From Chloropicon primus (lineage: Eukaryota), in the NCBI GenBank assembly GCA_023205875.1, contig CP060762.1, forward strand, positions 558,001 through 622,000: a stretch of DNA of 64,000 bases. The letters are read 5' to 3'. This document shows positions 12 to 32,223 of the stretch, in pieces; within the stretch, counting starts at the first letter, position 1, and every line of letters begins with the position of its first letter. The notes under the pieces are model-generated. The model ran no database searches. It worked only from the letters and a program-made list of their open reading frames with translations, and was not told the origin of the DNA. The position numbers and the translations under genes are program-made.

Positions 12-995
12 CTATACAACTCGCGTCAGCTTCTCGCAGAAGCTGACGTACGGATAAGTGTGACACATGTCCATGCCGTACCAATAGTTGATGGCGATGC
101 AAGGGTGGCCGTCCTCGTCTGAGGCCTGGGAGACGGCGTGGAGCCACATAGCAGGCAAGTACAAGGCTTCCCCTGCTCTCACGGTGACTTGCATGGGAGG
201 AGGTCCTGGTCCGTACGCACTCGGAGGTGAGTTGGGATAGATAGGACACCAACGCACAAGGCGCAGAGGGTCTTCTACATCAAGCTTGAGGCCTCTGTCG
301 TACCGAGCAGCGGGAGCGGACCGCATACCGAGCCTGAACGAGTCCGTTGGCGGCAGCAGCATGAACGTCTTGATCCCGGTCACAACGAAGTACAAGTTCT
401 CGTAGTGATCTCGATGCATTGTCGTCACGCTCCTCTCGTCCCCGATCCAGATGTTCACGGCCTCCGGAGGGCTTCCAAACGCTTCCGTTGCGAATGGCAC
501 ATCCACGCCACAATCCTCCAGTAACGCAGGGAGCTCCGAGCTCAGCGAGGAGTTCTGTGCCGAAAGGTAAGGCACGCCTCCTCCGTCTTCCCTGCCCTTG
601 AGCGCGGCCAGAAACTCGGCGAACTTCATTGTCCTCTCGAACGGCTGCGCGAAAACCTCGCGGCCCGACCCCTTGTCGTGCACCAGAGCATCGGCGTAGC
701 CATCCGGCGTGAACGCCACCGTCACCTCGCAGTCCCCGACCCTCTCCTCCAGGTACTCGGCATTTGCCCAGGGTGATGTTCGCCACCTTTCGCGCTCCAC
801 AGCTCCGCGAAACACCGCTGGTCTCGATGGCACGACGTACTTTCGAAGGAATCCCGCCGCATCACCCATCGGGTAATCTTCCGGAGAGACCCGCTCCACC
901 CTCGTCCCAATCAATTCCCTTAACTCCTCGCTCAGCTCCACCAGCATCCTCCCTTCGTGTTCGCGTTCCTCCATCTCATCACAAGGACTCGGCAT
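12..995 (-). CDS. JMJD7: JmjC-domain hydroxylase, JMJD7-like
   Basis: Cupin-like JmjC motifs: PYLSAQNS, AVNIWIGDERSVTTMHRDHYENLY (HxD), GEALYLPAMWLHAVSQ, AINYWY. Start may be the second Met. Confidence 0.85.
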   Translation of the reverse strand: MPSPCDEMEEREHEGRMLVELSEELRELIGTRVERVSPEDYPMGDAAGFLRKYVVPSRPAVFRGAVERERWRTSPWANAEYLEERVGDCEVTVAFTPDGYADALVHDKGSGREVFAQPFERTMKFAEFLAALKGREDGGGVPYLSAQNSSLSSELPALLEDCGVDVPFATEAFGSPPEAVNIWIGDERSVTTMHRDHYENLYFVVTGIKTFMLLPPTDSFRLGMRSAPAARYDRGLKLDVEDPLRLVRWCPIYPNSPPSAYGPGPPPMQVTVRAGEALYLPAMWLHAVSQASDEDGHPCIAINYWYGMDMCHTYPYVSFCEKLTRVV

Positions 996-1266
996 TCTGT
1001 CTTCACCCCCCTTGGCATTGGCTTCACCCCTCTGCTCCCCTTGGCATTGGCTTCACTCCCTCTGCTCCCCTTCCCTTTGACTTCACTCCCTCTGCTTCAC
1101 TCCCTCTGCTTCACTGCTTGGCTGCCAAGTGGACCTTCCCGAGGCTTGGCGAAGTAGTGCACGAGGGAGGTTGGAGGAGAGGGGCGGACCACACGATTCT
1201 ACGTCTCAAGATCTTTCGTTTGACCGGTCGCTTGCGCTCTTGCGCTCTCGTTCACGACCTCTGTGC

Positions 1267-1267
<1 letters not shown>

Positions 1268-1306
<39 letters not shown>
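1268..1306. repeat. (CAT)n microsatellite
   Basis: About 13 CAT units just upstream of the ATG at 1337. Confidence 0.9.
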
Positions 1307-1307
<1 letters not shown>

Positions 1308-1336
1308 TTCAACGAGGCATCCAACAGGGGAGGAGG

Positions 1337-1915
1337 ATGGCAAGCGAACGGAGTGTGACGACGCGCTCAATGTCAGCGTCCTACAGAGGGAACCTCCTGT
1401 CCGAGAGACAGGCCTTGGAGGTCGCCAGGGCGGCGAAGAGAGTGGCAGTACTCGGCATCAAGACGGCAGACAAGTCGAGCCAAGCTTCCTATTACGTGCC
1501 AGAGTATCTGCAGAGCCAGGGGGTGGAGGTGGTGCCAGTGCCAGTGTACTATCCAGAGGTGAAAGGTAAGGTTGCTCGGCTGCTGTGATTGCCATTTGGC
1601 GTCCCGCTGCTGACACTCATGAACTGCGTTCGTCTTGAATGGGTTGCAGAGATTCTGGGCGAGCGAGTGTATCGCACGGTGTCAGAGGTCCCATCAAGCT
1701 CCTCCCTGTGCATCGTGGACGTGTTCCGGAGGCCCAAGGACCTCCACCAGCATCTCGAGGACCTTTTACAGGCCAAGCCAAAGTGTGTCTGGCTTCAGAG
1801 TGGCATCTCCGACAGAGATTTCGAGGAGGAGCTTGCCAAGAATGGAATCAAGGTCGTCAGCTCGCGCTGTCTTCTCATGGACCACCAAAGAGCTGTGAGG
1901 CAGTCCAGCCTCTGA
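1337..1915 (+). CDS. CoA-binding domain protein (YccU-like); exons 1337-1565 and 1650-1915
   Basis: VAVLG...YVPEYLQSQG.EVVPV, IVDVFRRP and KCVWLQSGI motifs. GTAAG...CTGAC...CAG intron at 1566-1649 joins the exons in frame. Confidence 0.85.
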
Positions 1916-2000
1916 GCAGCCCAGCCTCCGAGTCCTCGGAGTCGACGTCGGGGACTGACGACCAAACTAGGTTCGGTGTAGATGAAAAGTAAATCGGTTA

Positions 2001-4409
2001 TCATATCACGACTTTGAAGATTTTCCATCCTTCGGTTGTTGTCTTGAAAGTGTAGGTCACCTCGTAAGGCTCGCTGTACGCGGACCTCACCTTGCCGCCT
2101 CTCTTCTCAATCAGCTCGGCCTTCTCCTCTATCCTGACCTTGGCGGTGACGACGTTTCCACTCGTCCCGACGTTCGAGATGTCCATGACATTCACATCGA
2201 CGAGCTCGTACTTCCAGTAGCAGCCCGCTCTCTTGGCGCTGATGGCCCTTTCCTTCCACTCCGTCCAGAGGTCGCCCACGAGGGATTCCCTGAGACCCCT
2301 GATGTCGTGCTGCTGCCCCAGGGCACTGCTCTTGATGCCGTTCCACTTCTTGATGAGCCACCTGACCTCCGCGTTCGTCAAGGAAGCCTCAGGCTTCCTC
2401 GCTCGGGTTCCCGTTGAAACCTTTTTGGGAGCCTCCCTCACTTGCTGCTGGTGCCGCACGGCCGTTCTGGCCGGCCGGTCCTCCCTTCCGACGAGCCCAG
2501 AGGCTCCGAAAGCCAGGGCCAGCAGCCCCGCGATACAGGCCTTCCCCAGGAAGGAGAGGTCTCTGTCGCCCTGGATGATGGTCTTCTTCGTGCCGGAGAG
2601 AGCACCCGCGGCGCGGTCCACGCCAGAGTCCCACAGCTGCGCCAAGCCCCATTCCGCGGAGCAGTACCTCCTGACCCTCTTGTCGTCGAAGTACTCCTCC
2701 AGGGTCTTCCTCTTCCCCATTTTTCTCACATCCTTCGTGTCCCTGAAGAGTTCCATCTTGGACGCGAGGTACTGCTCAGCAAACGCGGTGATTCCCTCCA
2801 GGCCCCCTCCTTGCATCCTGATGAAGGTCATCATCATGCTTCCCGAGCTAGGCAGGTCCATCGATCCGGTTCCACTTCCGCCCGCCGTCATCTGCTCCAG
2901 CTCCTTGATGCTGCCCCCGACCGAGGCCTCGGCCTCCTCGAGAATTTCGACGGCCTCCTCGAGCTTGCCCAGCAAAACCATCCCAACCGCCCTCTCACCG
3001 GCGAGGTCCACCGCCCTGCCCGCCCCGACCTCGTCCTCTTCCACCTTGTTCAGGAGCTCCAGGCCCCGGACCACGAGCTTGGGCTCCTTGTCGAGGAAGC
3101 CCGACAAGATTCCGGCCAGGGCGGCCTTGTAGAGCATGCTCGAATCGTACCAGACGCCGACGGGCGTCTCGGGGGCCGCGAAGTCAACCTCTCTCCACGG
3201 AAGGAAGGCGAGCGTCTCCCTCACGGTCAGTGCCTTGAGAACCGCCTGAACGAAAGAGTTGGTGATGCTGGAGTCGATGTTGTCCTCCAGGAGAAGCTCC
3301 TCGAGGACAAGGGCGGCCTGCTGCCTCGTGGCGCCGTGGTGGTCTTCGAGGGGCAACCTCAGGTGGTCCAGGGCGCAGGGAGCCACGAGCCTCTCCAGGG
3401 TCCCCTCAATCTCCTCGCAGAGGAGGGGCATGAGCCGCGGCTTTCCGGGCGCGGACTTGAGGAGCTCCAGCGCGGAGTTCAAGTGCGCGCACCCCTCGGC
3501 CACCCTCCTCTTCTGCTTCCTCTTCGAGGGGGAAGGGGGTGGCCCAGAAGGGCTGTTGTCCAAGTAAACCTTCGCGAGCTCGCAGTGCGACAAGGCCACC
3601 GCGAGGGACACGTCCCTCCTCTGCGTCCTCGAGAGCCTGGCCCTCCTCTCCTGCACCGCCGGGGTCTGCACCCCCTCCGACGACGACGACGCGGGCATCA
3701 CGAGGCCGAAGAGGTCGGCCACCGGCGACGACCCGGACTGGTCGAGCAGGCTCGTGCCGAGCGCAATGCAGTTCTCGAAATCGCCCACCTCGACGAGGAG
3801 GAGGGCCACGCCGCTCATCCAGGACACGGGGAGCGCCACGGACTCGTGCGTGGGCCTGAGGGCGATGCCCCCCTGGGAGCCAGCCGTGCTCATCCTCACC
3901 CGGCTCCGCGAGGGGCTGCGACTCGTCAGCGCCTGCCTCGCGAGTTCCAGGACCCTCTGCCTCCCCTCCGCGGCGTCCGAGCTGAAGGGAATGCCCTGCT
4001 GGTTCGACGCCGCCGTCCTCGAGGCGTACGCCCTGTCCAGCTCCTCCCTCGACGCGTGGCGCTGGGAACCCAACCCCAGCACCTTGTAGTAGTCAATGGG
4101 CACCGGAAACGTTCGCTCCCTCCCCTTCACGCCGACCTCGAACGCCTCCGACAGGGAGGACGACAGGACCCTCCGTCCGCCATCCCTCGATGCCGCCAAC
4201 GCGATCCCCCCGGAGGACGAGGACGAGGTCTTGGAATGGCCAAAGCCGAAGCCTCTCCCCGGTTTCCTGATCACGCCATGGCGTGGGGGGTGAAGGTGAA
4301 GAAGATGCTGGTGCTGGTGCTGGTGGCGGCCAGAAGGAGCAGCAGACAAAGCACCGCAAGAGGAAGAAGAAGAGTGAGAAGCAGACGAAATGCTCGCCGC
4401 CTTGTCCAT
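2001..4409 (-). CDS. ARC6: ARC6/Ftn2-like chloroplast division protein
   Basis: Ser-rich transit-like N-terminus, J-like PIDYYKVLGL, RRDVSLAVALSHC, one TM segment, C-terminal IMS/DUF4101-like region (WNGIKSSALG, GCYWKYEL, YEVTY...WKI). Alternative start at 4496. Confidence 0.85.
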   Translation of the reverse strand: MDKAASISSASHSSSSSCGALSAAPSGRHQHQHQHLLHLHPPRHGVIRKPGRGFGFGHSKTSSSSSGGIALAASRDGGRRVLSSSLSEAFEVGVKGRERTFPVPIDYYKVLGLGSQRHASREELDRAYASRTAASNQQGIPFSSDAAEGRQRVLELARQALTSRSPSRSRVRMSTAGSQGGIALRPTHESVALPVSWMSGVALLLVEVGDFENCIALGTSLLDQSGSSPVADLFGLVMPASSSSEGVQTPAVQERRARLSRTQRRDVSLAVALSHCELAKVYLDNSPSGPPPSPSKRKQKRRVAEGCAHLNSALELLKSAPGKPRLMPLLCEEIEGTLERLVAPCALDHLRLPLEDHHGATRQQAALVLEELLLEDNIDSSITNSFVQAVLKALTVRETLAFLPWREVDFAAPETPVGVWYDSSMLYKAALAGILSGFLDKEPKLVVRGLELLNKVEEDEVGAGRAVDLAGERAVGMVLLGKLEEAVEILEEAEASVGGSIKELEQMTAGGSGTGSMDLPSSGSMMMTFIRMQGGGLEGITAFAEQYLASKMELFRDTKDVRKMGKRKTLEEYFDDKRVRRYCSAEWGLAQLWDSGVDRAAGALSGTKKTIIQGDRDLSFLGKACIAGLLALAFGASGLVGREDRPARTAVRHQQQVREAPKKVSTGTRARKPEASLTNAEVRWLIKKWNGIKSSALGQQHDIRGLRESLVGDLWTEWKERAISAKRAGCYWKYELVDVNVMDISNVGTSGNVVTAKVRIEEKAELIEKRGGKVRSAYSEPYEVTYTFKTTTEGWKIFKVVI

Positions 4410-4557: not shown

Positions 4558-5598
4558 TTGCTTGTGGCGCTCGCCTTCCTCGTGTGGGGGCGACGGAGTC
4601 CGAGGCCGGCGACGACGGGGGCGAGATCCGTGCACCTGGCGAGGGTCCAGGCGACGCCGAGGGTCCAGGCGACGACTCTGCCGCGCGGGAATGGGACGCA
4701 TCGACTCGCGGACGGCTGCCACCACGTGTTCCTGGACGTCGGGGCGAACATTGGGATCCACACCCGGTTCCTGTTCGAGCCTTCGCTGTACCCGGACGCG
4801 AGCTTGTCGACGGCGATTTTCGAGTCCCAGTTCGGCAGCGGCCGGGACAACAGGGACTTTTGCGCGTTCGGTTTCGAGCCCAATCCCGCTCACGCGGACA
4901 GGCACCGGGAGCTGGAGGCGATGTACGGCGCCATGGGCTGGAGGTACACACCCGTGCTCGCGGCGGCGGGGAACAAGGAGGGGGCACTGACCTTTTACCA
5001 CAACGCCAAAGGCGCCGGGAGCGAGGAGTGGGGGTTCTCCTCCTCGCTCCACGCGGATCCCAAGGACGTGATCGCGGAGGAAGTCCCGGTCGTCCACCTG
5101 GCCCGCTGGATCGAGAGGGAGATCATGGGGTGGAAGCTCCCGGCCCGCGTTTACGGCAAGTACGAGGGGGATCCCGGCCCCAAGGTCGTGATGAAGATGG
5201 ACGTGGAGGGGCAAGAGTACTACCTCCTTCCCAGCCTGCTTGCCACCGGGGTCATGTGCAAGGGGGTCGACTTTGTCTTCGGGGAGCACCACGCCCGCTT
5301 CTTCCGGTCGCACCAGAGCGGCACGGATTTTGACGCGCGAGGGGACCTGGACCGCTTCGACATCGACAAGCAGGCGTGGTCCTGGCACACCGCGTACGAG
5401 AAGATCTTCGGAGACCTGAAATTCAAGAAGTACCCCAAGGGAGAGCTCGTGGTGGAGTCGGAAGAGGACGCCTGGCGGATATTCGACTTGCTGGTGACGA
5501 TGATGATGTCCACAACCGAAGAGGATTGCAAGACGACCTTTCTCATGGCCGACGACGAGAGCTACCTCCACGATGGCGCCCCCTGGCCCGCCCCATGA
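4558..5598 (+). CDS. FkbM-like SAM-dependent methyltransferase with N-terminal hydrophobic anchor; start codon unresolved
   Basis: VFLDVGANIG, FGFEPNP and VVMKMDVEGQEY motifs. No in-frame ATG before the SAM motif. Confidence 0.65.
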   Translation: MLVALAFLVWGRRSPRPATTGARSVHLARVQATPRVQATTLPRGNGTHRLADGCHHVFLDVGANIGIHTRFLFEPSLYPDASLSTAIFESQFGSGRDNRDFCAFGFEPNPAHADRHRELEAMYGAMGWRYTPVLAAAGNKEGALTFYHNAKGAGSEEWGFSSSLHADPKDVIAEEVPVVHLARWIEREIMGWKLPARVYGKYEGDPGPKVVMKMDVEGQEYYLLPSLLATGVMCKGVDFVFGEHHARFFRSHQSGTDFDARGDLDRFDIDKQAWSWHTAYEKIFGDLKFKKYPKGELVVESEEDAWRIFDLLVTMMMSTTEEDCKTTFLMADDESYLHDGAPWPAP

Positions 5599-5769
5599 GG
5601 CGAGCCCCCCCAAGTCGTCTCGAAGAAGCACTGGAGCAAAAATACAGAAGCACAATTGTCCTAAGGCTCGTTCACGGGGAGGCCATATGGTTCATGGTGT
5701 GAGCCCCCGCTCTCAGTCGTCGTCGATCAAAATCGTAAATAAACCTAACACACATACGCACACAAAGTA

Positions 5770-7188
5770 TTACAAATAAACAGTGTCCACCTCGCAATTC
5801 CCAAGTCTTGTGTCGCTTCCGCTGAACTCCTTCCAAAACGTGCTGTGGCCAAAAGCAACGATCACTTTCTGGGGCTGTTCCAGGACCCACTGGCGGAAGA
5901 GTCCCACCCGCTTCTGCAGGTTCTTCTTTGGCTCCCTGCTCTCGAACTTCATCTCTATCGCACAATTTTTGTTGGGCTGCCACCACCACCGCTCCTCCAG
6001 CGCCTCCTCCAGTGCTTCCTTCAAGTTTGGAAAGTCCTTGACGAGGTGAGACTTGGGCCTGCCGATGTCCCCGGTCGTGGCAAGGTGCTCCGCCATCAGG
6101 CTGCAGATGGCGACCTTGCCGTCGAGCGCGGAAGGCAGGGCGCCAAGGAGGGTCTGGATGCACCTCGTGAGTGGCGAGGCAACGAAAAGCACGGGGCTTG
6201 AGCCATCCTGGCCGCTGAGACGCCCAAGGGAAACCACGGAAGAAGGGCAGGGACGTCAGTTGTGGCTGATCAGCGAGCGCCGAAAGAGGTCAAACTCCTT
6301 ACCTTTGGGGCAATTTTTCAAGCAGCGTCGGCCTCAGGCTCGCCGCCTGCTGCTTGCCCAAGTCAGTGAGGGCCGCATCAAACACAAAGGGATCCTCAAG
6401 ACTCCTCGAGTACCGATCCAAGGCGTTGTACACGCTCTCCCCGTGCCTGACTATGATGACCTTCTTGCGGTCACATTTCTGAAGATGTAGGGCGTCTTCA
6501 TCACAGAATCCGAGAGGTTGGCGCCCGCGCCTTGGCCACTGGACGAGGGAACCCCGCACTGTATCTCCCCGCACCTTCCTGTCACCGGTGGTGTCGTGTC
6601 ATTGTAGACGGCCTCCTGTTGCGGGCCGTTCACTCTCTCGGGAGTCGCCTCCTCCGCGGTCGACTGCGGCTCGTCGTGGCTCCTCTCGTAGTTCTGCGAG
6701 CAGTGAATGACGAAGCCGTCGTCCTCATCCATCGCCGGGCCCCGCTCTTCCTCCTCGACCTTTGCGGGGGTGCGGCGGAACCTCAGTTTTCTCAACGAGG
6801 GCAGCGCCAGGGGAGAAGCCAGTGACGCCCCCGCGGAGGAGGTCCCTTCCTTCAGGGGAGTCTCAAAGTATGCCCCACCGCCATCTTTGCTTTCGTTCTC
6901 AAGCTGCCTCAGGAAAAACTCTCCAGCTTGCCAAAGGAGGGCGAAAGAAGGACAACCCTTGCGTCAGCACAACACAACACCTTTGGCCCTCCCAGCTGAG
7001 AACAACAGCAACAACAACAAAAAGCAGAAGAGCTTTGGCATACACTTACCTCTCACGCAGGAGCTCCTCCTCCGCTGGCTCTTCGTCTCCAAGCCAGTCC
7101 TTCTGTCGACGTTCTCTTGGTGGTTGAAGGTGTCCACGCCGTCGCACTTGTCCTCGAGGGATTCCCTCGGCCTCTTCGTGCTCGCCAT
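5770..7188 (-). CDS. Histidine phosphatase/phosphoglycerate mutase family protein; multi-exon, with a frame break near 6465
   Basis: VIIVRHGES, DAALTDLGKQQA, SPLTRCIQT and FGHS...LGNCE motifs. Introns at ~7049-6927 and 6302-6215. Confidence 0.75.
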
Positions 7189-7614
7189 CGCGCGCAGAAT
7201 TCTAACGCAATGCTCTCTCCCTCCCTCCTTCCAAGCACAAACCTTTCTGTTCGCAACACTCACGTCAGGAGCACGCCATGATTGCCTTCCATTCGAAGAC
7301 GCCGCCAACGCCAACGCACCCCTTCGCCCTCACCTCTCCCTCTCTCAGTCTCTTCCCCTTGCAACCAACCACCACACCCATGCAATTGAATGGCCTTTCC
7401 ACGGACGCTTCTCTCTCTCTCCTCCCGTCAAGCGACGGCTCGTTCGAAAGATCTCGAGATACTCTTTTGCTTGATGTCCTCCCTCGCTCGGTCACCCCAA
7501 CCCCTTCCGCTCTCGTTCCTCCTCCCTTGGAGACCAAACACCCCGCACCTCCTTCGCGCTTCCTCGCCTCTCCACCTGTGAAAAAAACATTTGAACTCTC
7601 TCTCTCTCGATAAC

Positions 7615-7884
7615 GGCTGAGAAGTTGGTGGAGAGGGCGAGCTTCCTTGGCGAAGTGAGGACGGAAGAGGGAGGGAGTCGTGCGGGGGACGACGCACAAC
7701 GAAAGAACGCCTCTCGGTCTTTCGAACGAGCCGTCGGTCGACGCGTTTGGTGCCCGGTGTGGTGCGGGAGGTAGGAAGAAGGGCGGAGGGAGGAAGGGCT
7801 GAGAAGTTGGTGGAGAGGGCGAGCTTCCTTGGCGAAGTGAGGACGGAAGAGGGAGGGAGTCGTGCGGAGGACGACGCACAACGA
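7615..7884. repeat. 88-bp direct repeat (7615-7702 and 7797-7884)
   Basis: Near-identical copies; the second ends on the ATG of the next gene. Confidence 0.9.
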
Positions 7885-9827
7885 TGTTGAGATGGTTTAG
7901 AAGTCCCTCCAAGGACGGGAAGAAGCCCGAGGAAGGGAAGAGGCACAAGGTTCACCTGGGGGAGTCAAAAAATAAGTTTTATTTCGATGAGAAGCTGAAG
8001 AGGTGGAGAGTGGAGGGGGAGGAGGAGGGGGAGGAGGAGGAGGCGGGCCCTCCGTCTCCGCCCAAGATGTCGGCAGCGGCGGTGGCTTTCGGAGCCCCTG
8101 GAGGAGGTTTTTCTCACGGCAACGGGGCGCAGAGCGAGGGCATCTCGAGCGAGGGCGGTGGACTGAACTGGTCCGCGGCGAATCCGAACCAGGATCTGAG
8201 CCGATCCATGACTAGCAACGACACCCAGCGATCTTCAGCCAACGTGCGGAGGAACATTCGCTCGAGGTACGTGGATGCTTTTGGCAACCAGTCCGTCGAC
8301 TCCGCGGTCGCCGGTGCGGCGACCACGAAGAAGGCACCGCTGCTTCCCTTTGCTCCCGTTCCAAGCACTGGCGGCGGTTTGAACGGGAGTCACGCCACGG
8401 CAAGCGTCTCCATGTTTGTTCCGAGTCAAGTTGGGGACGAGGACGCCCAACAAGCGGGTGGTTATGCGAGCTTTCAGCCCTCGGATCCTTGGACGGAGAC
8501 CAAGGCGGCAGTCCAGCAACCCCAGCAGGAGGGGGAGCAGGAGGCGGAGTCTTCGCCCCCTGATCCACCGGGAGTCGCACAGCAGGCTCCCCTCGAGGGC
8601 GTTGGTGATCCTCTCACCTTGCACGAGAGCGTGCAGAGTGCCCCGTACTACCAGGACCAGGGCTTCGACTTTGGTCCTCGTGGGGACGTGGCGCCAGAGT
8701 CCGAGTGGGAACCTCAGTACGACATGTCACACGGCGTGGCAGTGCCTCAGCAAACTGCGCACCACAACGATTGGCACGAAGAAGGAGGACATGGCGATCG
8801 TTGCGGTAACTCGGAAGAAGCGACGCTGGAGGGGGGGTACGAGGTGGTGGATGGGGAGACGCGGGCGCAGGGGGAGCAGGACGATTTCGCCCACCTGATG
8901 CAGCAGACGAAAGCGGAAGAATTCGAAGGTCCCCTCACTCCGGGGGATTACGAATCTTCAGAGGGGTCGCGGGAGGCCGCCGGCCGACACAACGGCGACG
9001 ACGTGGGGCTGCCTGTGGCCGAGCAGCACGTCGTCCCTCCAGGCCGCACAGACGTCGATCATTCAGCGGATTGTTCGGGCGAGCTGCCGCGGCAGCCGTC
9101 TCTGGACGTCTACCTCCACAGCCCATCCTCCGGGGTGCAGGAAGCGTCTCCGCTGCAACAGCAGAGGCCGGAGGAGGATTGGCCCCCTTCTGAGAAATCG
9201 CCGGACACCGCCAGCGCGGGAACGAGGGGATCCCAGCACGCGCCTGGATCTTCAGACCGGGGGCACACGCCTCCCGAGAAGACGACTCTCAACGGCGATC
9301 CGGCAGCGATCGCCCGGGACCCCTACATCGTCGAGGGGGTGATCCGCAGCCTGGTCTGCGAGAACCAAGTCTTCAGGGACAAGGTGAAGTCCCTCGAGGA
9401 GGAAGCGAGCGCGCAAAAGGCGGAGCAGGTCGAGCTCAAACTCCAGCTGCACTGCCTGGAGTCGGACATGAACGACCTGCTGGTGTGCTTGGGCCAAGAG
9501 TCGTCCAAGGTGAGTAAGCTCGTGGGGGCCCTGAACGAGCTCGGAGTCGACGGCGGTGAGATGCTCCGGGAGGCCGAGGAGGCGATCCTGGCCCACCCGG
9601 GGGAATCTGGGGTGGCGCAGGAGGAAGTGGAGGGCAAGGGGGACAAGGGGGACGACGACGAAGCGAGCTCCACTTCGTCCTCCCTTTTCTGCGACGAGTC
9701 GGAGGCGGCGATGAGCCCCCCGCCCGCTCCTCCTGGCGGGCACGAGGACGAGGACGAGGAGAGCGTCTACGAGACGGAGGAGGCGGATTACAGCATGCCC
9801 ACCCTCCGCAACTCGATCCACCTGTAA
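7884..9827 (+). CDS. Largely disordered protein with a Sec16-C-terminus-like N-terminal motif and a Uso1/p115-like C-terminal coiled coil
   Basis: LGESKNKFYFDEKLKRWRVEG...PPSPP and RSRYVD at the N-terminus; MNDLLVCLGQESSKVSKL...LGVD plus an acidic tail at the C-terminus. Confidence 0.7.
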   Translation: MLRWFRSPSKDGKKPEEGKRHKVHLGESKNKFYFDEKLKRWRVEGEEEGEEEEAGPPSPPKMSAAAVAFGAPGGGFSHGNGAQSEGISSEGGGLNWSAANPNQDLSRSMTSNDTQRSSANVRRNIRSRYVDAFGNQSVDSAVAGAATTKKAPLLPFAPVPSTGGGLNGSHATASVSMFVPSQVGDEDAQQAGGYASFQPSDPWTETKAAVQQPQQEGEQEAESSPPDPPGVAQQAPLEGVGDPLTLHESVQSAPYYQDQGFDFGPRGDVAPESEWEPQYDMSHGVAVPQQTAHHNDWHEEGGHGDRCGNSEEATLEGGYEVVDGETRAQGEQDDFAHLMQQTKAEEFEGPLTPGDYESSEGSREAAGRHNGDDVGLPVAEQHVVPPGRTDVDHSADCSGELPRQPSLDVYLHSPSSGVQEASPLQQQRPEEDWPPSEKSPDTASAGTRGSQHAPGSSDRGHTPPEKTTLNGDPAAIARDPYIVEGVIRSLVCENQVFRDKVKSLEEEASAQKAEQVELKLQLHCLESDMNDLLVCLGQESSKVSKLVGALNELGVDGGEMLREAEEAILAHPGESGVAQEEVEGKGDKGDDDEASSTSSSLFCDESEAAMSPPPAPPGGHEDEDEESVYETEEADYSMPTLRNSIHL

Positions 9828-9885
9828 ATGAAAAAAGTGCAATCCACTGGGATCAAAACATTGGTGAATCACCCCTTCACTCACG

Positions 9886-9910
9886 GAGAGAGAGAGAGAG
9901 AGAGAGAGAG
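9886..9910. repeat. (GA)n microsatellite
   Basis: Read directly from the sequence. Confidence 0.9.
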
Positions 9911-10151
9911 TTCCACCCAATCATCCGCTTCCTTCTGCTGTCCCCCCCCTCCCTGCCGTCCTCGTTTGGCATACCCCCTGCTGCTGAAAACGGATGATTG
10001 ATGGGACCCCTCCCCCCCTCCTGCCCCCTTCTGGGTGCCACCCTGGCCTTTGACTCCTCGTGATTGATTGGGACACATTGGGGTCCCTCCATCCCCTCCC
10101 TCCATCCCCTCCCCTCCATCCCCTCCCCTCCATCCCCGCTGCGCTGGTAAG

Positions 10152-10607
10152 ATGTCGATTGTGTTGCACTCCGAACGACGGCGCGCCTTGTCGTCGTTTC
10201 ATTCGAACGCTGCGGAGTCGCCTTCCGTGTGTAGCGGTCGGAGCGACTATACTTTGACGGTTGAGCCGTGTCCTCACGGGACTTTTGTTGCGTTGGTGAC
10301 GTCCGTGTCCCTGCTCGCACACATCCTCGGCGCTTCTCTCTGCTGGTGGCACCCTGCCGTTTCCCACGTGGCGTTTGGCGTGAGCGTTTTCCTCCACCTC
10401 GTCCTGAACGCGTACAATTTTTCTCTGCGGACTCAAGATGCGCGGTTTTCGTTTCTTCTGTCCTCTTGCTTACTTTTGAGTATGGTTTCATTCATGATTT
10501 GCGCGTTGACTTCTACAGGCGCGACTGTTTCCATCGTGTTTCATATACTTTTGATCATGCTGAACATGGTTCTTTTGATACATAATCCTAATGAGTACGT
10601 CCAATAG
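10152..10607 (+). CDS. Hypothetical membrane protein with ~4 TM segments
   Basis: 151-aa ATG-initiated ORF with four hydrophobic stretches. Confidence 0.45.
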   Translation: MSIVLHSERRRALSSFHSNAAESPSVCSGRSDYTLTVEPCPHGTFVALVTSVSLLAHILGASLCWWHPAVSHVAFGVSVFLHLVLNAYNFSLRTQDARFSFLLSSCLLLSMVSFMICALTSTGATVSIVFHILLIMLNMVLLIHNPNEYVQ

Positions 10608-10786
10608 AGTGGAGACAGCCGCAGGGTCCTGAAGACGGATACGACGTCACCGTCCTTGGCAGCACTTGCATCTTCTTCCTCTGTCACGGCCAAGGTCGAA
10701 AATTTCGTACTACGACGACCGCGGTTTCGCGCTCCTTCACCACCGCTCCATTCGACGGACATTGCTAATGGCCTGTTTCGGATGCT

Positions 10787-11005
10787 TTATATACGTTCTC
10801 TCAATTGCTTTTGGGCCGATTCCATGCACAACGCGAACGTGACTTTGTTGTGTTTATACTTGGTTCTCGACAGTATAAAATCGAGGTAAGGGTGTTCATC
10901 CATGATGAAGCGTCCCAAGGGGTCATCGGGGACATGATACACAAGCCAATCGACGAGGTCTTCGTCCCGCACGATCTTCACGATTTCATCAAAAGGAGTC
11001 GACAT
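10787..11005 (-). CDS. Small hypothetical protein (72 aa)
   Basis: ATG-initiated ORF with protein-like composition inside the island; no recognised family. Confidence 0.35.
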   Translation of the reverse strand: MSTPFDEIVKIVRDEDLVDWLVYHVPDDPLGRFIMDEHPYLDFILSRTKYKHNKVTFALCMESAQKQLRERI

Positions 11006-11507
11006 CGCTCAATTGAATGGATCAGAAAGAGAAACGAAACAAACGATACAATTCATCTTACAGAAACAAACGGGGGGCCCATCCGGTCAGTCACGCGCCC
11101 GTTGTCGCCGAGTCGCCTCGATTGTACGGATGCGCCATGAGGTGAGCGCGCTTAGCACTGACGATGCAACCACGCAGAGCGCAAGTACCCGCGTTTCGAT
11201 GGATAAACCTTCAAGGTGCTCGAAAACGAAGTCGTAAGGCGAGTGGTCGACTGCTGATATTCCTTCAATGACTTGAGGGGGCTGAATGATGTTGTGTCCT
11301 TCATTCTCCGCCGAAAAGAATGGTGTTTCTTCGAGGACTTTCATTGTTGCATTGATGTAGTACAGTGTGCACGTCAAATGATAATGTGGGTGAAAACAAA
11401 CACGGAGGTAAAAACTGTCCCGGTTTTAAAAAAATCGTCATTTTTTTGTTTTCTGCAGCGCACCGCCGCTTCGCAATGGCCGCATCACCGCGTTCGAGGT
11501 GCGCGTC

Positions 11508-14500
11508 ATGGCGTCGGACGCGCCGCCGAGCAAACGCCGCCGTGTCGACGACTACGACGTGCCGTCTCCGATCGGCGCGTCCAAGGCCGAGACACGTCAC
11601 GTCGCGCATGTGGCGCAGCTGTTGTTTGAGAACGGCTTGCTTGAGCAGGGCGTGACCGGGCGCTCGCTCGCGAAGCACCTGACGGAAGGCAAGACCCACC
11701 ACAACACCGATGCGTTCTTCAAGCTCACGAATGGCACGGAAGTGCTGTTCGAGTACGACCCGGGCTTCACGCACGGCGACTCCGACGTGGGACGCGACCA
11801 ACGCAAGACGACCAAGCTCCGCGAAATGTTCCCTGACGCGTTCGTGGTCCGCTTGCGCGTGGGCGCCGCACACTTCGAGCAGCTTTCGCAGTGGGGGGAC
11901 AACGTGCTCGTCGTCGTCACCGAGTCGCAATTACCGAACGTTGCCGCGTCAGCTGCTGTGACCGCCGTCGCGCAGCGCATCCATCAAGGCGGTGCTGCAG
12001 CGACCAAGGCGTGCCCGAGCAGCAACCATGACAACGCCGCCGCCAACGATGCCGCCGCGGACGTGTGGGCGCGCATGAGCAAGGAGTTTGAAGCCGCCGA
12101 GCAGCGCGTCGCGACGCTCGTGGGTGGTGATCTCGACCTGGCGCGAAAGCTCATGGCCACCCCCGGAGTGCCTTCGCGTGTCCTGACGGGAGCCTTCGAG
12201 AAAAGCATCAAAGGGTTGCAAGATCCCAAGTTCGGCATAACCAACTTGGGCACGTTTGTCTGCGGCGGCGTCGCTGCAAAGTTCGACGATCCGGAGAAAC
12301 TCTTTGACATCCTCACGGCGCTCAAGACGCGCTTCGGCATCAAGAGTCTCCAGACCTTTGTTTCAGACAGCGTTGCGGCGAGGTTTGACGATCCCGACGC
12401 GCTCTACGCCGTGCTCGACACTTTGAGGACGCGCTTCGGCATCAAGAGTCTCCAAACCTTTGTTTCAGACAGCGTTGCGGCGAGGTTTGACGATCCCGCA
12501 GCGCTCTACGCCGTGCTCGACACTTTGAGGACGCGCTTCGGCATCAAGAGTCTCCAAACCTTTGTTTCAGACAGCGTTGCGGCGAGGTTTGACGATCCCG
12601 CAGCGCTCTACGCCGTGCTCGACACTTTGAGGACGCGCTTCGGCATCAAGAGTCTCCAAACCTTTGTTTCAGACAGCGTTGCGGCGAGGTTTGACGATCC
12701 CGCAGCGCTCTACGCCGTGCTCGACACTTTGAGGACGCGCTTCGGCATCAAGAGTCTCCAAACCTTTGTTTCAGACAGCGTTGCGGCGAGGTTTGACGAT
12801 CCCGCAGCGCTCTACGCCGTGCTCGACACTTTGAGGACGCGCTTCGGCATCAAGAGTCTCCAAACCTTTGTTTCAGGAGGCGTTGCGGCGAAGTTTGACG
12901 ATCCCGACGCGCTCTACGCCGTGCTCGACACGCTGAGGACGCGCTTCGGTATCAAGAGTCTCCAGACCTTCGTTTGTGGTGGCGTTGCGGCGAAGTTTGA
13001 CGATCCCGACGCGCTCTACGCCGTGCTCGACACGCTGAGGACGCGCTTCGGCATCAAGAGTCTCCAGACCTTCGTTTGTGACAGCGTTGCGGCGAAGTTT
13101 GACGATCCCGACGCGCTCTACGCCGTGCTCAACACTTTGAGGACGCGCTTCGGCATCAAGAGTCTCCAGACCTTCGTTTGTGATGGCGTTGCGGCGAAGT
13201 TTGACGATCCCGACGCGCTCTACGCCGTGCTCGACACGCTGAGGACGCGCTTCGGTATCAAGAGTCTCCAGACCTTCGTTTGTGGTGGCGTTGCGGCGAG
13301 GTTTGACGATCCCGACGCGCTCTACGCCGTGCTCGACACGCTGAGGACGCGCTTCGGTATCAAGAGTCTCCAGACCTTCGTTTGTGGTGGCGTTGCGGCG
13401 AGGTCTGACGATCCCGACGCGCTCTACGCCGTGCTCGACACGCTGAGGACGCGCTTCGGTATCAAGAGTCTCCAGACCTTCGTTTGTGGTGGCGTTGCGG
13501 CGAAGTTTGACGATCCCGACGCGCTCTACGCCGTGCTCGACACGCTGAGGACGCGCTTCGGTATCAAGAGTCTCCAGACCTTCGTTTGTGATGGCGTTGC
13601 GGCGAAGTTTGACGATCCCGACGCGCTCTACGCCGTGCTCGACACTTTGAGGACGCGCTTCGGTATCAAGAGTCTCCAGACCTTCGTTTGTGGTGGCGTT
13701 GCGGCGAGGTTTGACGATCCCGAGGCACTCTACGCCGTGCTCGACACTTTGAGGACACGCTTCGGCATCAAGAGTCTCCAGACCTTTGTTTCAGACAGCG
13801 TTGCGGCGAGGTTTGACGATCCCGCAGCGCTCTACGCCGTGCTCGATACTTTGAGGACGCGCTTCGGCATCAAGAGTCTCCAGACCTTTGTTTCAGACAG
13901 CGTTGCGGCGAGGTTTGACGATCCCGCAGCGCTCTACGCCGTGCTGGACACTTTGAGGACGCGCTTTGGCATCAAGAGTCTCCAAACCTTTGTTTCAGGA
14001 GGCGTTGCGGCGAGGTTTGACGATCCCGCAGCGCTCTACGCCGTGCTGGACACTTTGAGGACGCGCTTCGGTATCACCTTTGTGAATAACAGCGTTGCGG
14101 CGAAGTTCGACGATCCCGACGCGCTCTACGCCGTGCTCGACACGCTGAGGACGCGCTTCGGTATCAAGAATCTCCAGACCTTTGTTTGCAATAGCGTTGC
14201 GGCGAAGTTCGACGATCCCGAGGCACTTTACGCCGTGCTTGAAGAGCTCGAGCAGATGGTCGGCAAAGGCGGCGTGCTGATAGCGGGTTCGAACGCCTTC
14301 GCGTCGCGCATGTTGAAGCCTGGGTTTGTGGACGCGGTAGTCGCATGCGGGGACGCTCTGTCGGTCCTGGGATTGGATCCCGTCAAAGAGTTGCGGACCG
14401 TGTTAAACAAGGAGAACGCGAAGTTGATGAACATGATCGGCACGCTCGCCGCCAAGCTGAAGGCGTGCAGCGACGAGGGCGCAGCGCACCAGCTGCTTGT

Positions 14501-14558
14501 TTCGCTGCGGAACAAGAAAAGGAAACACGAGGCCATGATTGCCATGATTGATGCATGA
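11508..14558 (+). CDS. Vsr/DUF559-like endonuclease fused to a 20 x 34-aa TALE-like repeat array
   Basis: NLS PPSKRRR; S-x-x-E...D...EYDPGFTH...RDQRKT..L...VVRLR nuclease-type motif; 102-bp tandem repeats; C-terminal RNKKRKH. Confidence 0.8.
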   Translation: MASDAPPSKRRRVDDYDVPSPIGASKAETRHVAHVAQLLFENGLLEQGVTGRSLAKHLTEGKTHHNTDAFFKLTNGTEVLFEYDPGFTHGDSDVGRDQRKTTKLREMFPDAFVVRLRVGAAHFEQLSQWGDNVLVVVTESQLPNVAASAAVTAVAQRIHQGGAAATKACPSSNHDNAAANDAAADVWARMSKEFEAAEQRVATLVGGDLDLARKLMATPGVPSRVLTGAFEKSIKGLQDPKFGITNLGTFVCGGVAAKFDDPEKLFDILTALKTRFGIKSLQTFVSDSVAARFDDPDALYAVLDTLRTRFGIKSLQTFVSDSVAARFDDPAALYAVLDTLRTRFGIKSLQTFVSDSVAARFDDPAALYAVLDTLRTRFGIKSLQTFVSDSVAARFDDPAALYAVLDTLRTRFGIKSLQTFVSDSVAARFDDPAALYAVLDTLRTRFGIKSLQTFVSGGVAAKFDDPDALYAVLDTLRTRFGIKSLQTFVCGGVAAKFDDPDALYAVLDTLRTRFGIKSLQTFVCDSVAAKFDDPDALYAVLNTLRTRFGIKSLQTFVCDGVAAKFDDPDALYAVLDTLRTRFGIKSLQTFVCGGVAARFDDPDALYAVLDTLRTRFGIKSLQTFVCGGVAARSDDPDALYAVLDTLRTRFGIKSLQTFVCGGVAAKFDDPDALYAVLDTLRTRFGIKSLQTFVCDGVAAKFDDPDALYAVLDTLRTRFGIKSLQTFVCGGVAARFDDPEALYAVLDTLRTRFGIKSLQTFVSDSVAARFDDPAALYAVLDTLRTRFGIKSLQTFVSDSVAARFDDPAALYAVLDTLRTRFGIKSLQTFVSGGVAARFDDPAALYAVLDTLRTRFGITFVNNSVAAKFDDPDALYAVLDTLRTRFGIKNLQTFVCNSVAAKFDDPEALYAVLEELEQMVGKGGVLIAGSNAFASRMLKPGFVDAVVACGDALSVLGLDPVKELRTVLNKENAKLMNMIGTLAAKLKACSDEGAAHQLLVSLRNKKRKHEAMIAMIDA
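12246..14273 (+). repeat. Coding tandem array of 20 x 102-bp units (one with a 12-bp deletion)
   Basis: Consensus LQTFV-xxx-VAA[R/K]FDDP[D/A/E]ALYAVLDTLRTRFGIKS. Variable triplets start at 12261, 12363, 12465 and so on up to 14187. Confidence 0.97.
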
Positions 14559-15433
14559 CACCCCCCTCTTCTGGTGTTTGGAAGCCCTGGAGGGGGCGTG
14601 TTATTCGTGAGTTGCTTGAGGAATGGGTCGCACTCGCTCTCTCACCCTCATTTGATGCCCGCTCACGCACATACATAGGCGGATGGGATTCGTCCTTACG
14701 CATTTTGGCAATGTTTGACATGCCCGACCATCTTGAGAAGATGGTCAAGGTTGGCGTCTCGTATGCGTTGGAAGCCGCCCACGAAAGCGTGGACCGTTGC
14801 AGCTACGACTGCCTTCGTGTGCTGTTGAAGTTCGGTAATATTGAGCTCGACTCCGGTCTCGATGGGGACGATGAGTGGACGCTTGTTCTGAGGGCTGTCA
14901 TCAACGATCACCCCAACTGTCTTCGAATTCTTCTTGAACATGGCGCTGATCCGAACGTCCAAATTGACGGTTTATCCCCTATTCACGAAGCTGCGGAGAG
15001 GGGCCACGTCGAGTGTCTTCGTTTGCTCGTCGCTTACGGTGCCGAAAAGGACTCTCTCTTGGAGAGTGGTGACATGACCCCTCTGCAATTCTGCGTCCGC
15101 GGCGGCCATATCGAATGCTTGCGTTTTCTGCTTGACGTCGGAGCGTCGCCGGACATTGCGAACGTGGACGGCACCACACCCATTATTTATGCGGCTGCGG
15201 AGAACCAAGTCGAGTGCTTGCGCATGCTTCTCGAGTCCGGTGCGGACAAGGACAGGGCAAACGGCGCAGGTTTGACGCCCGTGCAGCATGCTCGAGATCA
15301 TGGTCATGCCAGGTGCCTCAAGCTTTTGCTTGAGGCCGGAGCAACGCTGCCGGGGGCCCTAACGGGGGCCCTGACGGCCCCCGAACCCCCACGCTTGCAG
15401 CGGGGGTTGGAAGGGGGCTTGCCCCCTCCGTGA
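14555..15433 (+). CDS. Ankyrin-repeat protein (~5-6 repeats)
   Basis: SPIHEAAERGHVECLRLLVAYGA, TPLQFCVRGGHIECLRFLLDVGA, TPIIYAAAENQVECLRMLLESGA. True start may be a later Met. Confidence 0.85.
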   Translation: MTPPSSGVWKPWRGRVIRELLEEWVALALSPSFDARSRTYIGGWDSSLRILAMFDMPDHLEKMVKVGVSYALEAAHESVDRCSYDCLRVLLKFGNIELDSGLDGDDEWTLVLRAVINDHPNCLRILLEHGADPNVQIDGLSPIHEAAERGHVECLRLLVAYGAEKDSLLESGDMTPLQFCVRGGHIECLRFLLDVGASPDIANVDGTTPIIYAAAENQVECLRMLLESGADKDRANGAGLTPVQHARDHGHARCLKLLLEAGATLPGALTGALTAPEPPRLQRGLEGGLPPP

Positions 15434-15586
15434 GTGGAAAAGCTTCCCCGAGCCCCCACGCATTGAACTGCGCTACGAGTCAGTTTGTGTCGTGTGGCTC
15501 TTTCGTAAACCGTACAAACCCACGGGAGACTCGTTCAAAATGCGTCTAACCCTAATTAGCCCCCCGGCGCCGGCGCCGGCAGCACG

Positions 15587-16374
15587 TCCGTGACTTGGTT
15601 TACTCTCTCTACGCCGGCTTGTGCTCAGCGTTTTACGTCATTCCCCCGCCCGGGTCATCGGACAGCTTCACCTGCCTCTTTCAGGGCCGGGACATCGATG
15701 GGGGCCGGGGGGTCAGAGCAACGCTGAGCGGTGCGAGCGATGGCATGATTGAGTTGCTCCGGGAGGACTTTGGGTTGGAGCCTGTTGTGTGTGGCTTGGG
15801 GGAGAGGGGGAAGAGAATCGCAGACAAGCTGAAGATGGCCGGCGGGGATGGGCACAAGGTCCTTCTGTTCCTTGGGAGGGAGCAGGTTCACGGGCTCTTT
15901 GACTTTTTGATCACCACCTGTGGCAAAACGTATCACAAGCAGAGAGATGTGCCGACCCTGTTGGCCCCCGTGCCCTTTGAGGGCTCAAGCGTGAAGCGTT
16001 ACGCTGGGGTGTACAGGAAGAACACTCTTCTGAAACACAAGCACGAGAGGGGGCTTCAAACCTTCACCTTAACCTTTCAGGACGACGGAGGTCTCTTCCT
16101 GCCTCCCTGGGTGGTCGATCGGCTCTGCACAACCTTTCGCAAGACCCAAAGTTCCTTCTCGATGACCAGTGATTCGGGGGTCGACTTCAAAACAACGTCG
16201 TTGCAGTGTGGTGGTGGCGAGGACGGCAACAACAACGAGGACGTGAACGAGCGTGGAGAGGAAAGGTCGGAGTATGGAGGCGGGTTCTGGGATACGGAAG
16301 AGTGCGACAAGTGGCAGGAACGAGGAGGCAACATTGCGAACCTTCAGTGCGAGAAAGGTGTGTTTGTAATTTAG
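15587..16374 (+). pseudogene. DONSON: 5'-truncated DONSON-like coding sequence (C-terminal half)
   Basis: LVYSLYAGLCSAFYV..FTCLF, LLFLGREQVHGLFDFLI and DVPTLLAPVPFEG resemble conserved DONSON blocks. No N-terminal half or upstream start was found. Confidence 0.65.
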
Positions 16375-30735: not shown

Positions 30736-32223
30736 ATGGAGGAGCCCGGGATTTGCGGAGAGGGGTTAGCCTTGAGGTCGGGAACGGACGGAACCCTCGA
30801 CGACGTCAGCGATGACCAGCAGACGGACATCTCGAGAATCATGCACGCTGCGATAGCCGAGAAGGTATTCCCTGGAGGCGTGGTGTGCTATGGGAAGCTG
30901 AGCCCTGACGGAAAGGTCTTGCTTAGTGGCACGGAAGCGTTTGGAACGCTCACCTTCGAATCGAACGTCCCTGTGCAATCGGACTCCGTCTTCGATTTGG
31001 CTTCGCTCACCAAGGTGCTGGTGACGTCCACTGCGGTTCTTCTCCTCGTCCAGAAGGGTGATCTGGAACTGGACGGCCTGGTGAGTCAGTATCTTCCAGA
31101 GTTCGGGGTGAACGGCAAGGAGTCCGTCACGATAAGACACCTCCTGACCCACACGGCGGGCCTCAAGGCCTGGTACAACTTCAACGCGATGGGCCTCGAC
31201 ACCAAGGAGAAGGTCGTGGACTTTGTGCTTCAGGCTCCGTTAGTCTATGCCCCTGGCGCCGAATACTGGTATAGTGACCTGTCCATGATTGTTTTAGGTG
31301 TCATCGTGGAGAAGATTTCCGGACAGCCCCTGGACGGGTACGCCAAGGAGTTCATCCTCCGGCCGCTCGGAATGGAGTCCAGCGGGTACTACCGACCGGT
31401 GAGCACCACCGAGGCGGGGGAAGAGCCCGAGACACCGATGCCGACGAACATTGTGCCTACCGAAGTGGACACGAAAGTGAGGGAGAGGCTCCTTTGGGGT
31501 GAGGTGCACGACCTGAACGCTTACCTCATGGGTGGGGTGGCCGGCCACGCGGGGTTGTTCTCAAACGCCTTGGACATCTCAAAATTTTGCTCTGCCGTCT
31601 TGCGGAAGGGACTCATCGAAGGGGCGGCCGGGGGAAGGTTGTACTCGGAGAGCTCTTCTTCCCTGTTCCTCTCGAGGCTCTCGGATTCGTCGCCTTACGG
31701 ATTCGGTTGGAACCTCTACGGCGAGCCACGGAGGAAGGACACGGAGGAGAAAGCGGTGGAGGAAGAGGCTCAGCCCCAGCCCCCCCCACCCGCCGGTGCA
31801 GAGAAAGCGGGGGAGAGAGAGGAAAGGACCGAGAAACGCCCAGAACCGATCCCTTACCGGTCGGGGGGCAGGTTTCTGAGCCAGGAAGCAGTGGGCCACA
31901 CCGGCTTCACCGGAACGTCGATCTGGCTGGACCCAGCCAAGAACTTTTACGTGATTCTCCTCACCAACGCCGTGCACCCCAACTCCCTGAGCGAGAGCGG
32001 GGACAAAATCAAGCAAGTGAGGCCAGCCATCGCAGAGGCTGCTTTCCGCCTGTGCTTTCCCGAGGAAGAAGGCCTCGAGGAGGTCGACCGAAAACCGCTC
32101 CTTCCCCCGGGGAGTGACAAGGTTGGCAGCATCTCCAGCGGCGCCATTCGCATGCAACGGCATTGGAGGCAAGTCAGGGATATCACCTGCTTCCTTGCTG
32201 TGTGCTTGTGGTCCACCCTGTAA
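30736..32223 (+). CDS. Serine hydrolase, beta-lactamase class C/AmiE-like family
   Basis: FDLASLTK (SxxK), LLTHTAG, YSD, GEVHD.NA..MGGVAGHAGLFS and GHTGFTGT. Confidence 0.88.
   Translation: MEEPGICGEGLALRSGTDGTLDDVSDDQQTDISRIMHAAIAEKVFPGGVVCYGKLSPDGKVLLSGTEAFGTLTFESNVPVQSDSVFDLASLTKVLVTSTAVLLLVQKGDLELDGLVSQYLPEFGVNGKESVTIRHLLTHTAGLKAWYNFNAMGLDTKEKVVDFVLQAPLVYAPGAEYWYSDLSMIVLGVIVEKISGQPLDGYAKEFILRPLGMESSGYYRPVSTTEAGEEPETPMPTNIVPTEVDTKVRERLLWGEVHDLNAYLMGGVAGHAGLFSNALDISKFCSAVLRKGLIEGAAGGRLYSESSSSLFLSRLSDSSPYGFGWNLYGEPRRKDTEEKAVEEEAQPQPPPPAGAEKAGEREERTEKRPEPIPYRSGGRFLSQEAVGHTGFTGTSIWLDPAKNFYVILLTNAVHPNSLSESGDKIKQVRPAIAEAAFRLCFPEEEGLEEVDRKPLLPPGSDKVGSISSGAIRMQRHWRQVRDITCFLAVCLWSTL

Follow-up and report, generated by a model that had tools for sequence, protein, structure and literature searches.

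A putative Vsr/EDxHD-like nuclease joined to a TALE/mTERF-like repeat array in Chloropicon primus, with relatives in giant viruses

The gene and its layout

We analysed a 64,000-nucleotide stretch of the Chloropicon primus genome (GenBank assembly GCA_023205875.1, contig CP060762.1, positions 558,001 to 622,000, forward strand), called the window here and numbered from its first letter. One gene in it, encoding the protein P0001, joins a predicted nuclease domain to a long array of near-identical helical repeats, and this gene and its family are our subject. Papers are cited by PMC number. The features of the gene are as follows.

11508..14558 (+): intronless open reading frame (ORF) for P0001, 1016 amino acids, from the ORF list and translation; nuclear localisation signal (NLS)-like motif, nuclease, linker, 20 repeats and C-terminal cap
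11523..11546 (+): N-terminal basic NLS-like motif, residues 6-13, read from the sequence, its function presumed
11577..11885 (+): Vsr/EDxHD-like nuclease domain, residues 24-126, with putative active site E28, D68, E82, D84, H89, D97 and K100, from family conservation and the structure model; residue roles mapped from PMC3239194
11886..12227 (+): helical linker, residues 127-240, from the structure model and structure search
12228..14261 (+): 20 helical repeats, residues 241-918 (34 residues each, one of 30; 102-bp period), with loop [C/S]-[D/G/N]-[G/S] and middle-residue series GDDDDDGGDDGGGDGDDGNN
14262..14555 (+): C-terminal capping helices, also present in close homologues; residues 1003-1007 (14514-14528) form a basic NLS-like motif
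Codon positions: S25 11580, E28 11589, D68 11709, E82 11751, D84 11757, H89 11772, D97 11796, K100 11805, R115 11850, R117 11856

A profile search from four sequences gave 188 clusters of relatives (50% identity, E<=0.001), where earlier word-based searches had given 6 and then 8 relatives; the best 150 of the 188 were used as representatives. By our own hidden Markov models (HMMs), 58 of these carry the nuclease with at least one repeat, 26 the nuclease alone, 52 the repeats with another head or none (many being fragments), 12 the repeats behind a different, HPS/HPA-motif head, and 2 neither part. The nuclease is N-terminal to all repeats in 58 of the 58 representatives with both parts, in agreement with the N-terminal placement given by an earlier sequence-only reading of this DNA, and the gap to the first repeat is 92-140 residues in 57 of them. 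In P0001 the second half of the linker already aligns to mTERF/TALE solenoids (to mTERF1 from model residue 181, which is residue 193 of the protein). Its array of 20 units is unusually long, at most 11 being found in the 150 representatives. The same reading had seen NLSs rather than a transit peptide. Basic stretches can act as NLSs, and acidic residues in the N-terminus count against a transit peptide; P0001 has its NLS-like stretches at residues 6-13 and 1003-1007 and 5 acidic residues within its first 30, a composition dissimilar to a transit peptide, which supports the reading as far as NLS-like motifs are concerned.

Nuclease domain and repeat array

The sequence-only reading had matched an N-terminal peptide to a Vsr/DUF559-type pattern with intact catalytic residues. 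The peptide is in frame in 11508-14558 and its motif is conserved in the family, although its E-Y-D-P-G-F-T-H in the window has P in place of the pattern's G. We aligned 77 members, selected from matches covering the nuclease domain and mostly 20-35% identical to P0001. D84, H89, D97 and K100 are invariant in all 77, so the putative catalytic residues are indeed intact, and position 82 is acidic throughout (E in 65, D in 12). D68 is kept in 75 of 76, E28 in 64 of 65, S25 in 62 of 63, R115 in 75 of 77 and R117 in 76 of 77. Among the 84 nuclease-bearing representatives, as scored with our HMMs, the E/D-x-D..H..D..K pattern is intact in 80.

The active site of Vsr comprises E25, D51, H64, H69 and D97, and EDxHD homing endonucleases have an extra acidic residue at the place of Vsr F62; in one of them, I-Bth0305I (PDB 3r3p), the active-site residues are E170, D196, N208, H213 and D222 (PMC3239194). 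The composite EDxHD motif is found in P0001 as E28, D68, D84, H89 and D97, mapped by order and spacing and not by superposition. The spacing E82-x-D84-x4-H89 equals that of Vsr F62-x-H64-x4-H69, and H89 and D97 stand 8 apart, close to the 9 between H213 and D222 of I-Bth0305I. The likeness to I-Bth0305I extends to the order and spacing of the catalytic series (E, D, acidic-x-D/N, H, D) and to a two-part design of DNA-binding region and nuclease. In contrast, EDxHD homing endonucleases carry the nuclease C-terminal to NUMOD motifs and reside in phage introns or inteins (PMC3239194), whereas the family has it N-terminal to a long array, is free-standing, and occurs in giant viruses and algae.

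The AF2 model of residues 13-308 (pLDDT 94.8) has four strands and flanking helices in its nuclease part. Most VIA structure-search matches over this part are nucleases with the restriction-endonuclease-like alpha/beta core, at Z 5.7-8.2, values that by the tool's own warning may reflect merely a common structural arrangement. The best is VC1899 (Z 8.2, root-mean-square deviation (rmsd) 3.0, 117 residues aligned); others are Cdn1, Bax1, Can2, the RAP domain of FASTKD4 (6.6) and NGO0050 (5.9). I-Bth0305I scores Z 5.9 (rmsd 3.5, 93 aligned) and Vsr, ranking 41st, Z 5.8 (rmsd 3.5, 102 aligned). ESM Atlas features of residues 15-165 lie near (0.92-0.93) PvuRts1I-like and DUF559 clusters, and all of the 10 best family matches belong to one family or clan; the closeness to DUF559, 0.92, is reached with just 147 of 256 features shared.

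Pfam gave no match for the nuclease domain at E<=1, and none to DUF559, Vsr, NUMOD or RAP; DUF559 (PF04480) is also absent from the 25 families listed for the 77 members, three of which have sub-threshold matches to MTES_1575. Full-length Pfam matches of P0001 were rejected as noise from summed repeat scores. PHROG 9902, which carries no annotation, is matched by 13 of the 77, and a single-sequence search of PDB returned nothing relevant. A homodimer prediction for residues 17-212 scored 0.00 with the alignment not used, and counts neither for nor against dimers.

E. coli Vsr and the DUF559/PvuRts1I-like nucleases (PDB 1cw0, 3hrl) have the fold predicted for P0001 and the same His-based active-site pattern; P0001 differs in having no zinc motif and no Pfam DUF559 or Vsr match and in being fused to repeats. 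Because motif, fold class and conservation agree, we assign the domain as a Vsr/EDxHD-like nuclease of an apparently new subfamily, an assignment made from sequence and model; the earlier placement is supported for Vsr and is not borne out for DUF559, and nuclease activity is predicted from residue conservation.

The repeat units of the family representatives are mostly 33-36 residues long, around a core F-M-[C/S]-[D/N/G]-[G/S]-V-A. Variability was compared in 23 proteins with at least 3 interior units (130 units), setting the middle loop residue against the others of 33 positions. Its within-protein diversity is 0.67 and it varies in 22 of the 23 proteins, while the next positions reach 0.31, 0.30 and 0.29; it uses a three-letter alphabet of D, N and G. 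A hypervariable residue in the loop between the helices, a feature of TALE-like repeats, is thus present in the family. The series of these residues can differ between close relatives: two Tribonema paralogues with 96% identical N-termini read DGDDNDNGGD and NNDGGGGDGD, and an Emiliania huxleyi virus (EhV)-like pair, 95.7% identical, reads NNNNGDDND and NDNDSSND. In another cluster one series is kept in 9 of 10 members. Where metagenomic contigs differ in unit number, faulty assembly may be the cause.

The array's VIA matches are led by mTERF3 (Z 9.5), MTERF4 (9.4), TALE 4hpz (9.2), mTERF1 (8.8) and BurrH (8.4); just 13 of 48,161 chains reach Z 5, and the top 12 are all chains of mTERF or TALE type. 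Foldseek against PDB ranked TALE chains first, at E 0.03, with none at E<=0.001. With the family profile A3, the best PDB sequence is TALE PthXo1 (E 1.2e-6), the alignment laying c-D-g on S-H-D-G with one residue missing. The NCBIfam AvrBs3 model is matched by 3 of the 77 members (best E 1.3e-10, over one stretch of 185 residues); no other listed NCBIfam model matches more than one of them. A TALE cluster at 0.77 in ESM Atlas is a lead only. No mTERF (PF02536) row was found in Pfam for P0001 or the 77 members, despite the similar fold.

TALEs and TALE-likes (AvrBs3, PthXo1, BurrH/Bat, MOrTL, STAR) have tandem two-helix repeats of 33-35 residues with a variable loop residue (PMC4787788, PMC11417379), a layout that the family's units resemble, and a TALE chain aligns with 234 residues of the P0001 array model (Z 9.2, rmsd 5.5). 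The family differs from them in its shorter loop, in its departure from the TALE-like consensus X6VX6GX13LX4-6 (PMC4787788), in using mostly D, N and G, in having no activation domain and in its native fusion to a nuclease, which the available parts of PMC4787788 and PMC11417379 do not report for any TALE-like. Given a one-residue deletion, 67 of 405 units do fit the V and G of that consensus. The mTERF/pTERF proteins (PDB 3n6s, 3m66; PMC11417379) form a similar solenoid (Z 9.5, rmsd 7.2, 233 aligned); the family departs from them by its near-identical tandem units, its single hypervariable residue and its nuclease. We do not file the repeat as a member of the TALE-likes, and it plausibly works like one.

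The sequence-only reading had compared the protein with algal OPR-RAP proteins; the array instead folds like TALE/mTERF, and the gene family has giant-virus members. OPR-RAP and FASTKD proteins carry a C-terminal RAP after the repeats and an organelle-targeting N-terminus, whereas in P0001 the order is reversed and the N-terminus is acidic and NLS-like.

Family members and the Chloropicon locus

Of the 20 representatives that were looked up, two are named viral members: Emiliania huxleyi virus 84 AEO97741.1, whose N-terminal part is 97% identical to family member P0023, and Megaviridae environmental QFG74178.1. Three more are Tribonema minus proteins (HPS type) and one is from Craspedida, the others being metagenomic records. 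A Foldseek search of viral structures (BFVD) found 4 matches, with E from 2.7e-14 to 4.5e-6. Six metagenome loci have dense, mixed neighbourhoods, including GIY-YIG nuclease, kinase, MutS, H+-pyrophosphatase and HMG-like proteins, and 15 of 23 neighbours have no Pfam match; these loci we presume to be giant-virus-like by their gene pattern, with no hallmark gene shown. IMG/VR viral contigs yielded no relative, one pattern used there recovering just 3 of the 6 known loci; prokaryote species genomes held no match to that single pattern, and phage GenBank records none for family member P0020.

A quick tree of 78 nuclease domains places P0001 among marine proteins (support 99) and well away from the viral members that have names, so that a viral origin is only presumptive for the Chloropicon copy. 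Its closest relative, P0002, is 89% identical in the N-terminal part. The upstream sequence of P0002 differs from the window, and its EukProt gene model is merged with upstream amine-oxidase and protease-like parts. These parts are absent from the window, so P0002 sits in a different neighbourhood.

The full-text literature search found no description of the family and no paper joining "TALE-like" with "giant virus", most subscription journals and the supplements of PMC11417379 lying outside the search. Mirusvirus introns encode 16 VSR-like endonucleases, and TALE is not mentioned in the available part of that paper (PMC12768974).

The HPS/HPA-motif head stands before the same repeats in P0033, P0181, P0044 (Tribonema minus), P0040, P0068, P0084, P0110, P0115 and others. 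It has no Pfam or PDB assignment; it is reminiscent of uracil-DNA-glycosylase motifs. The repeat array appears to carry interchangeable heads.

Two of the metagenome loci had further features. In the EhV-like contig (L001) a repeated upstream element stands before several ORFs (at 1400-1480, 2145-2310, 5540-5600 and 10740-10870), with similar translations ahead of start codons and several paralogous HMG-like and short ORFs. In a virus-like contig (L005) the family gene has as neighbours a membrane H+-pyrophosphatase and a large MutS-domain protein, at 5917-8100 (-) and 239-3739 (+).

The remainder of the window holds ordinary eukaryotic genes, among them ARC6 (plastid division), MCM, Sec6, a gamma-tubulin complex component and an aminotransferase, and host genes flank P0001 on both sides; we read the host as a green alga whose genome is compact. 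The CpG observed/expected ratio (o/e) peaks in the three 1-kb bins of 11001-14000, at 1.38-1.48, and is mostly 0.6-1.1 elsewhere in the window; the P0001 gene is foreign in composition compared with the host. The gene lies in a candidate cassette with these features.

10595..15590 (no strand): candidate mobile cassette, proposed from alternative flanks at 10595, 14928 and 15587-15590, from deeper DNA coverage and from a CpG o/e that is high across 10500-14500
14555..15433 (+): ankyrin-repeat ORF adjoining P0001, inside the candidate cassette
15564..15579 (no strand): perfect 16-bp palindrome, one of 4 such in 64 kb; the branch point on the right, 15590, follows 11 nt later

DNA run X1 is not independent evidence, since the window sequence may derive from it; its depth is 315 at 10595-12355, compared with 93-122 at 8500-10624, and reaches 198-466 downstream. 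Contigs of this run branch at 10595, 14928 and 15587-15590. In run X4, DNA ending at 15590 and DNA starting at 15587 each continue into non-window sequence. The place of the palindrome, shortly before 15590, is one known from the ends of rolling-circle transposons. No empty-site joint was found among the alternative flanks, and the P0001 gene is free-standing. These features hint at a small mobile, multi-copy cassette with the ankyrin-repeat ORF as fellow passenger, its single-copy depth and ends being provisional. Small-share sequencing runs (X10-X17) were set aside as evidence of habitat.

The two alternative X4 junctions have 4 bases in common (15587-15590), which would fit either a preferred target site or microhomology. 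Both candidate ends also carry a 6-bp direct repeat, discarded as being at chance level, 329 of 2000 random pairs reaching 6 or more. The segment 10150-11430 is AT-richer (GC 0.49) and CpG-rich, with short ORFs at 10152-10607 (+) and 11087-11425 (-) lacking Pfam matches, and may form the left, variable portion of the inserted cassette. At 11072, 11428 and 15768 the X1 contigs depart from the window (a one-base deletion and two substitutions, none inside the P0001 ORF), likely through assembly errors or alleles. Contigs of runs X4 and X6 begin, transcript-like, at 11369 and 11418, 139 and 90 nt before the ATG, the RNA nature of these runs being a guess.

A candidate natural TALEN and its rivals

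We lean, a little beyond an even chance, towards P0001 being a virus-derived, TALEN-like site-specific nuclease whose array reads DNA, which is retargeted by repeat shuffling, and whose gene persists as a selfish passenger. Basic motifs would bring the protein into the nucleus, where the repeats would wrap duplex DNA as a superhelix of TALE/mTERF type, with one repeat per base and the loop residue D, N or G reading the base. The N-terminal nuclease, about 100 residues from the first repeat, would then cut beside one end of the site, D68 and D97 binding metal and H89 acting as base. Unequal crossing-over between the 102-bp units would rewrite the target, and the gene, viral in origin, would persist as a selfish passenger encoding a homing-like nuclease, within a small mobile cassette of an algal genome.

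Several results weigh against this reading. On the nuclease side, the modelled domain reaches only moderate Z-scores, and Vsr does not stand out among its matches; Foldseek of the model found no PDB match at E<=0.001, and a nuclease-only sequence profile matched no nuclease in PDB. A Vsr-like fold can also be inactive, as in FASTKD4, with Asn replacing the His (PMC11879112). For the array, the likeness to TALE by sequence depends on the profile used, the repeat-only profiles A4 and A6 matching neither TALE nor mTERF in PDB; summed repeat scores yield many spurious family matches; mTERF ties with TALE in the structure search, within about Z 1; and the array model is poor (pLDDT 75.6, pTM 0.60). 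Just 2 of 405 units fit the TALE-like consensus, and the loop is one residue shorter than that of TALE. Only 13 of the 23 proteins have the middle residue as their most variable position, ties included; in P0001 it is not the top one, positions 12, 13, 14, 18 and 23 varying alike, and four consecutive units are identical in DNA, as slippage would give. The main difficulty for a pure code model is that 15 of 27 apparently complete relatives with at least 2 units have just 2-3, too few to specify a site alone. The P0001 clade, moreover, includes no named viral member, and DNA binding, cutting and targeting by the array are all predicted from sequence.

Several of these points would also be accommodated if P0001 were an active DNA nuclease whose repeats form an mTERF-like clamp with no base code, loop variation being drift spread by slippage and specificity coming from nuclease and linker. 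We think this unlikely, while giving it real weight: mTERF ties with or beats TALE in structure, many complete members carry 2-3 units, P0001 has blocks of identical units, and the Tribonema paralogues differ at offsets +5 (8 of 10) and +17 (6 of 10) much as at +3 (7 of 10). Across the family, however, one position stands far above all others, its three-letter alphabet aligns on the TALE specificity loop, and 9 of 10 members of one cluster preserve the same series. Quite improbable, in our view, is an action like that of OPR-RAP or FASTKD proteins, in which the repeats would bind RNA and a RAP-like endonuclease would cut it. RAP-domain proteins do occur among the weak matches (FASTKD4 at Z 6.6, profile E 0.013-0.019), and several mTERF-type structure matches are mitoribosome-bound chains; but the nuclease is N-terminal here, whereas FASTKD4 has RAP at its C-terminus and is without the His (PMC11879112) that is invariant in the family, the N-terminus is acidic with an NLS-like motif, and the array's top structure matches are TALE/mTERF and not OPR/PPR.

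The role of the gene can also be read differently, as an algal defence nuclease domesticated against viral DNA or as a recent neutral passenger with no host function. The intact ORF and its long array would suit such a role, as would the host genes on either side and its coverage by contigs from three runs whose RNA nature is a guess; yet the composition is unadapted to the host and the alternative flanks suggest that the cassette is not fixed at the locus, and we judge this improbable.

Beyond the TALEN-like reading of P0001 itself, a wider proposition is held more tentatively, at somewhat below an even chance: that giant viruses and the algae that host them widely possess a natural TALEN system, built on an undescribed TALE/mTERF-fold repeat with a one-residue code (D, N, G), bearing interchangeable heads (mostly Vsr-type, others possibly glycosylase-like) and reprogrammed by repeat shuffling. 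Within the literature searched, the joining of a TALE/mTERF-fold array to a Vsr/EDxHD nuclease is undescribed. Nucleases aimed by a modular one-repeat-one-base protein code are known only as engineered tools. Engineered TALENs likewise combine a repeat array with a restriction-fold nuclease; P0001 differs in being natural and in having an N-terminal Vsr-like nuclease rather than a C-terminal FokI.

If the TALEN-like reading is right, a natural family of at least 188 clusters would supply a new programmable DNA-binding scaffold and a natural nuclease-array junction. It would also offer a handle on the origin of TALE repeats, the repeat sitting between TALE and mTERF, and on the role of mobile nucleases in giant viruses and recipient algal genomes. 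The wider natural TALEN system, if real, would correspond to Fanzor-type passenger nucleases but with protein as the guide, and would offer a new scaffold for programmable editing.

The claim is directly testable, because each protein's loop series predicts its target. In the TALE code D specifies C, N specifies G or A, and G specifies T, so that D, N and G are all base-specifying TALE letters; under it the predicted P0001 target would be a pyrimidine-rich 20-mer beginning TCCCCCTTCC. A code-free scan of the window gave no significant target. Scanning the window and two loci with the TALE code gave a best match of 17 of 20 at 35656-35675 (+), a score reached by 2 of 40 sequence shuffles and 4 of 40 order shuffles; this is not significant. 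That no target stood out counts against the TALEN-like reading, though true targets may lie outside the scanned stretches. The arrays of L001 and L003 are too short for such a scan. The match at 35656 lies inside an ORF at 35457-36764 (-), which has no Pfam match. Elsewhere in the window, an ORF of the beta-lactamase (serine hydrolase) family lies at 30736-32220 (+), matching Pfam PF00144 at E 6e-59.

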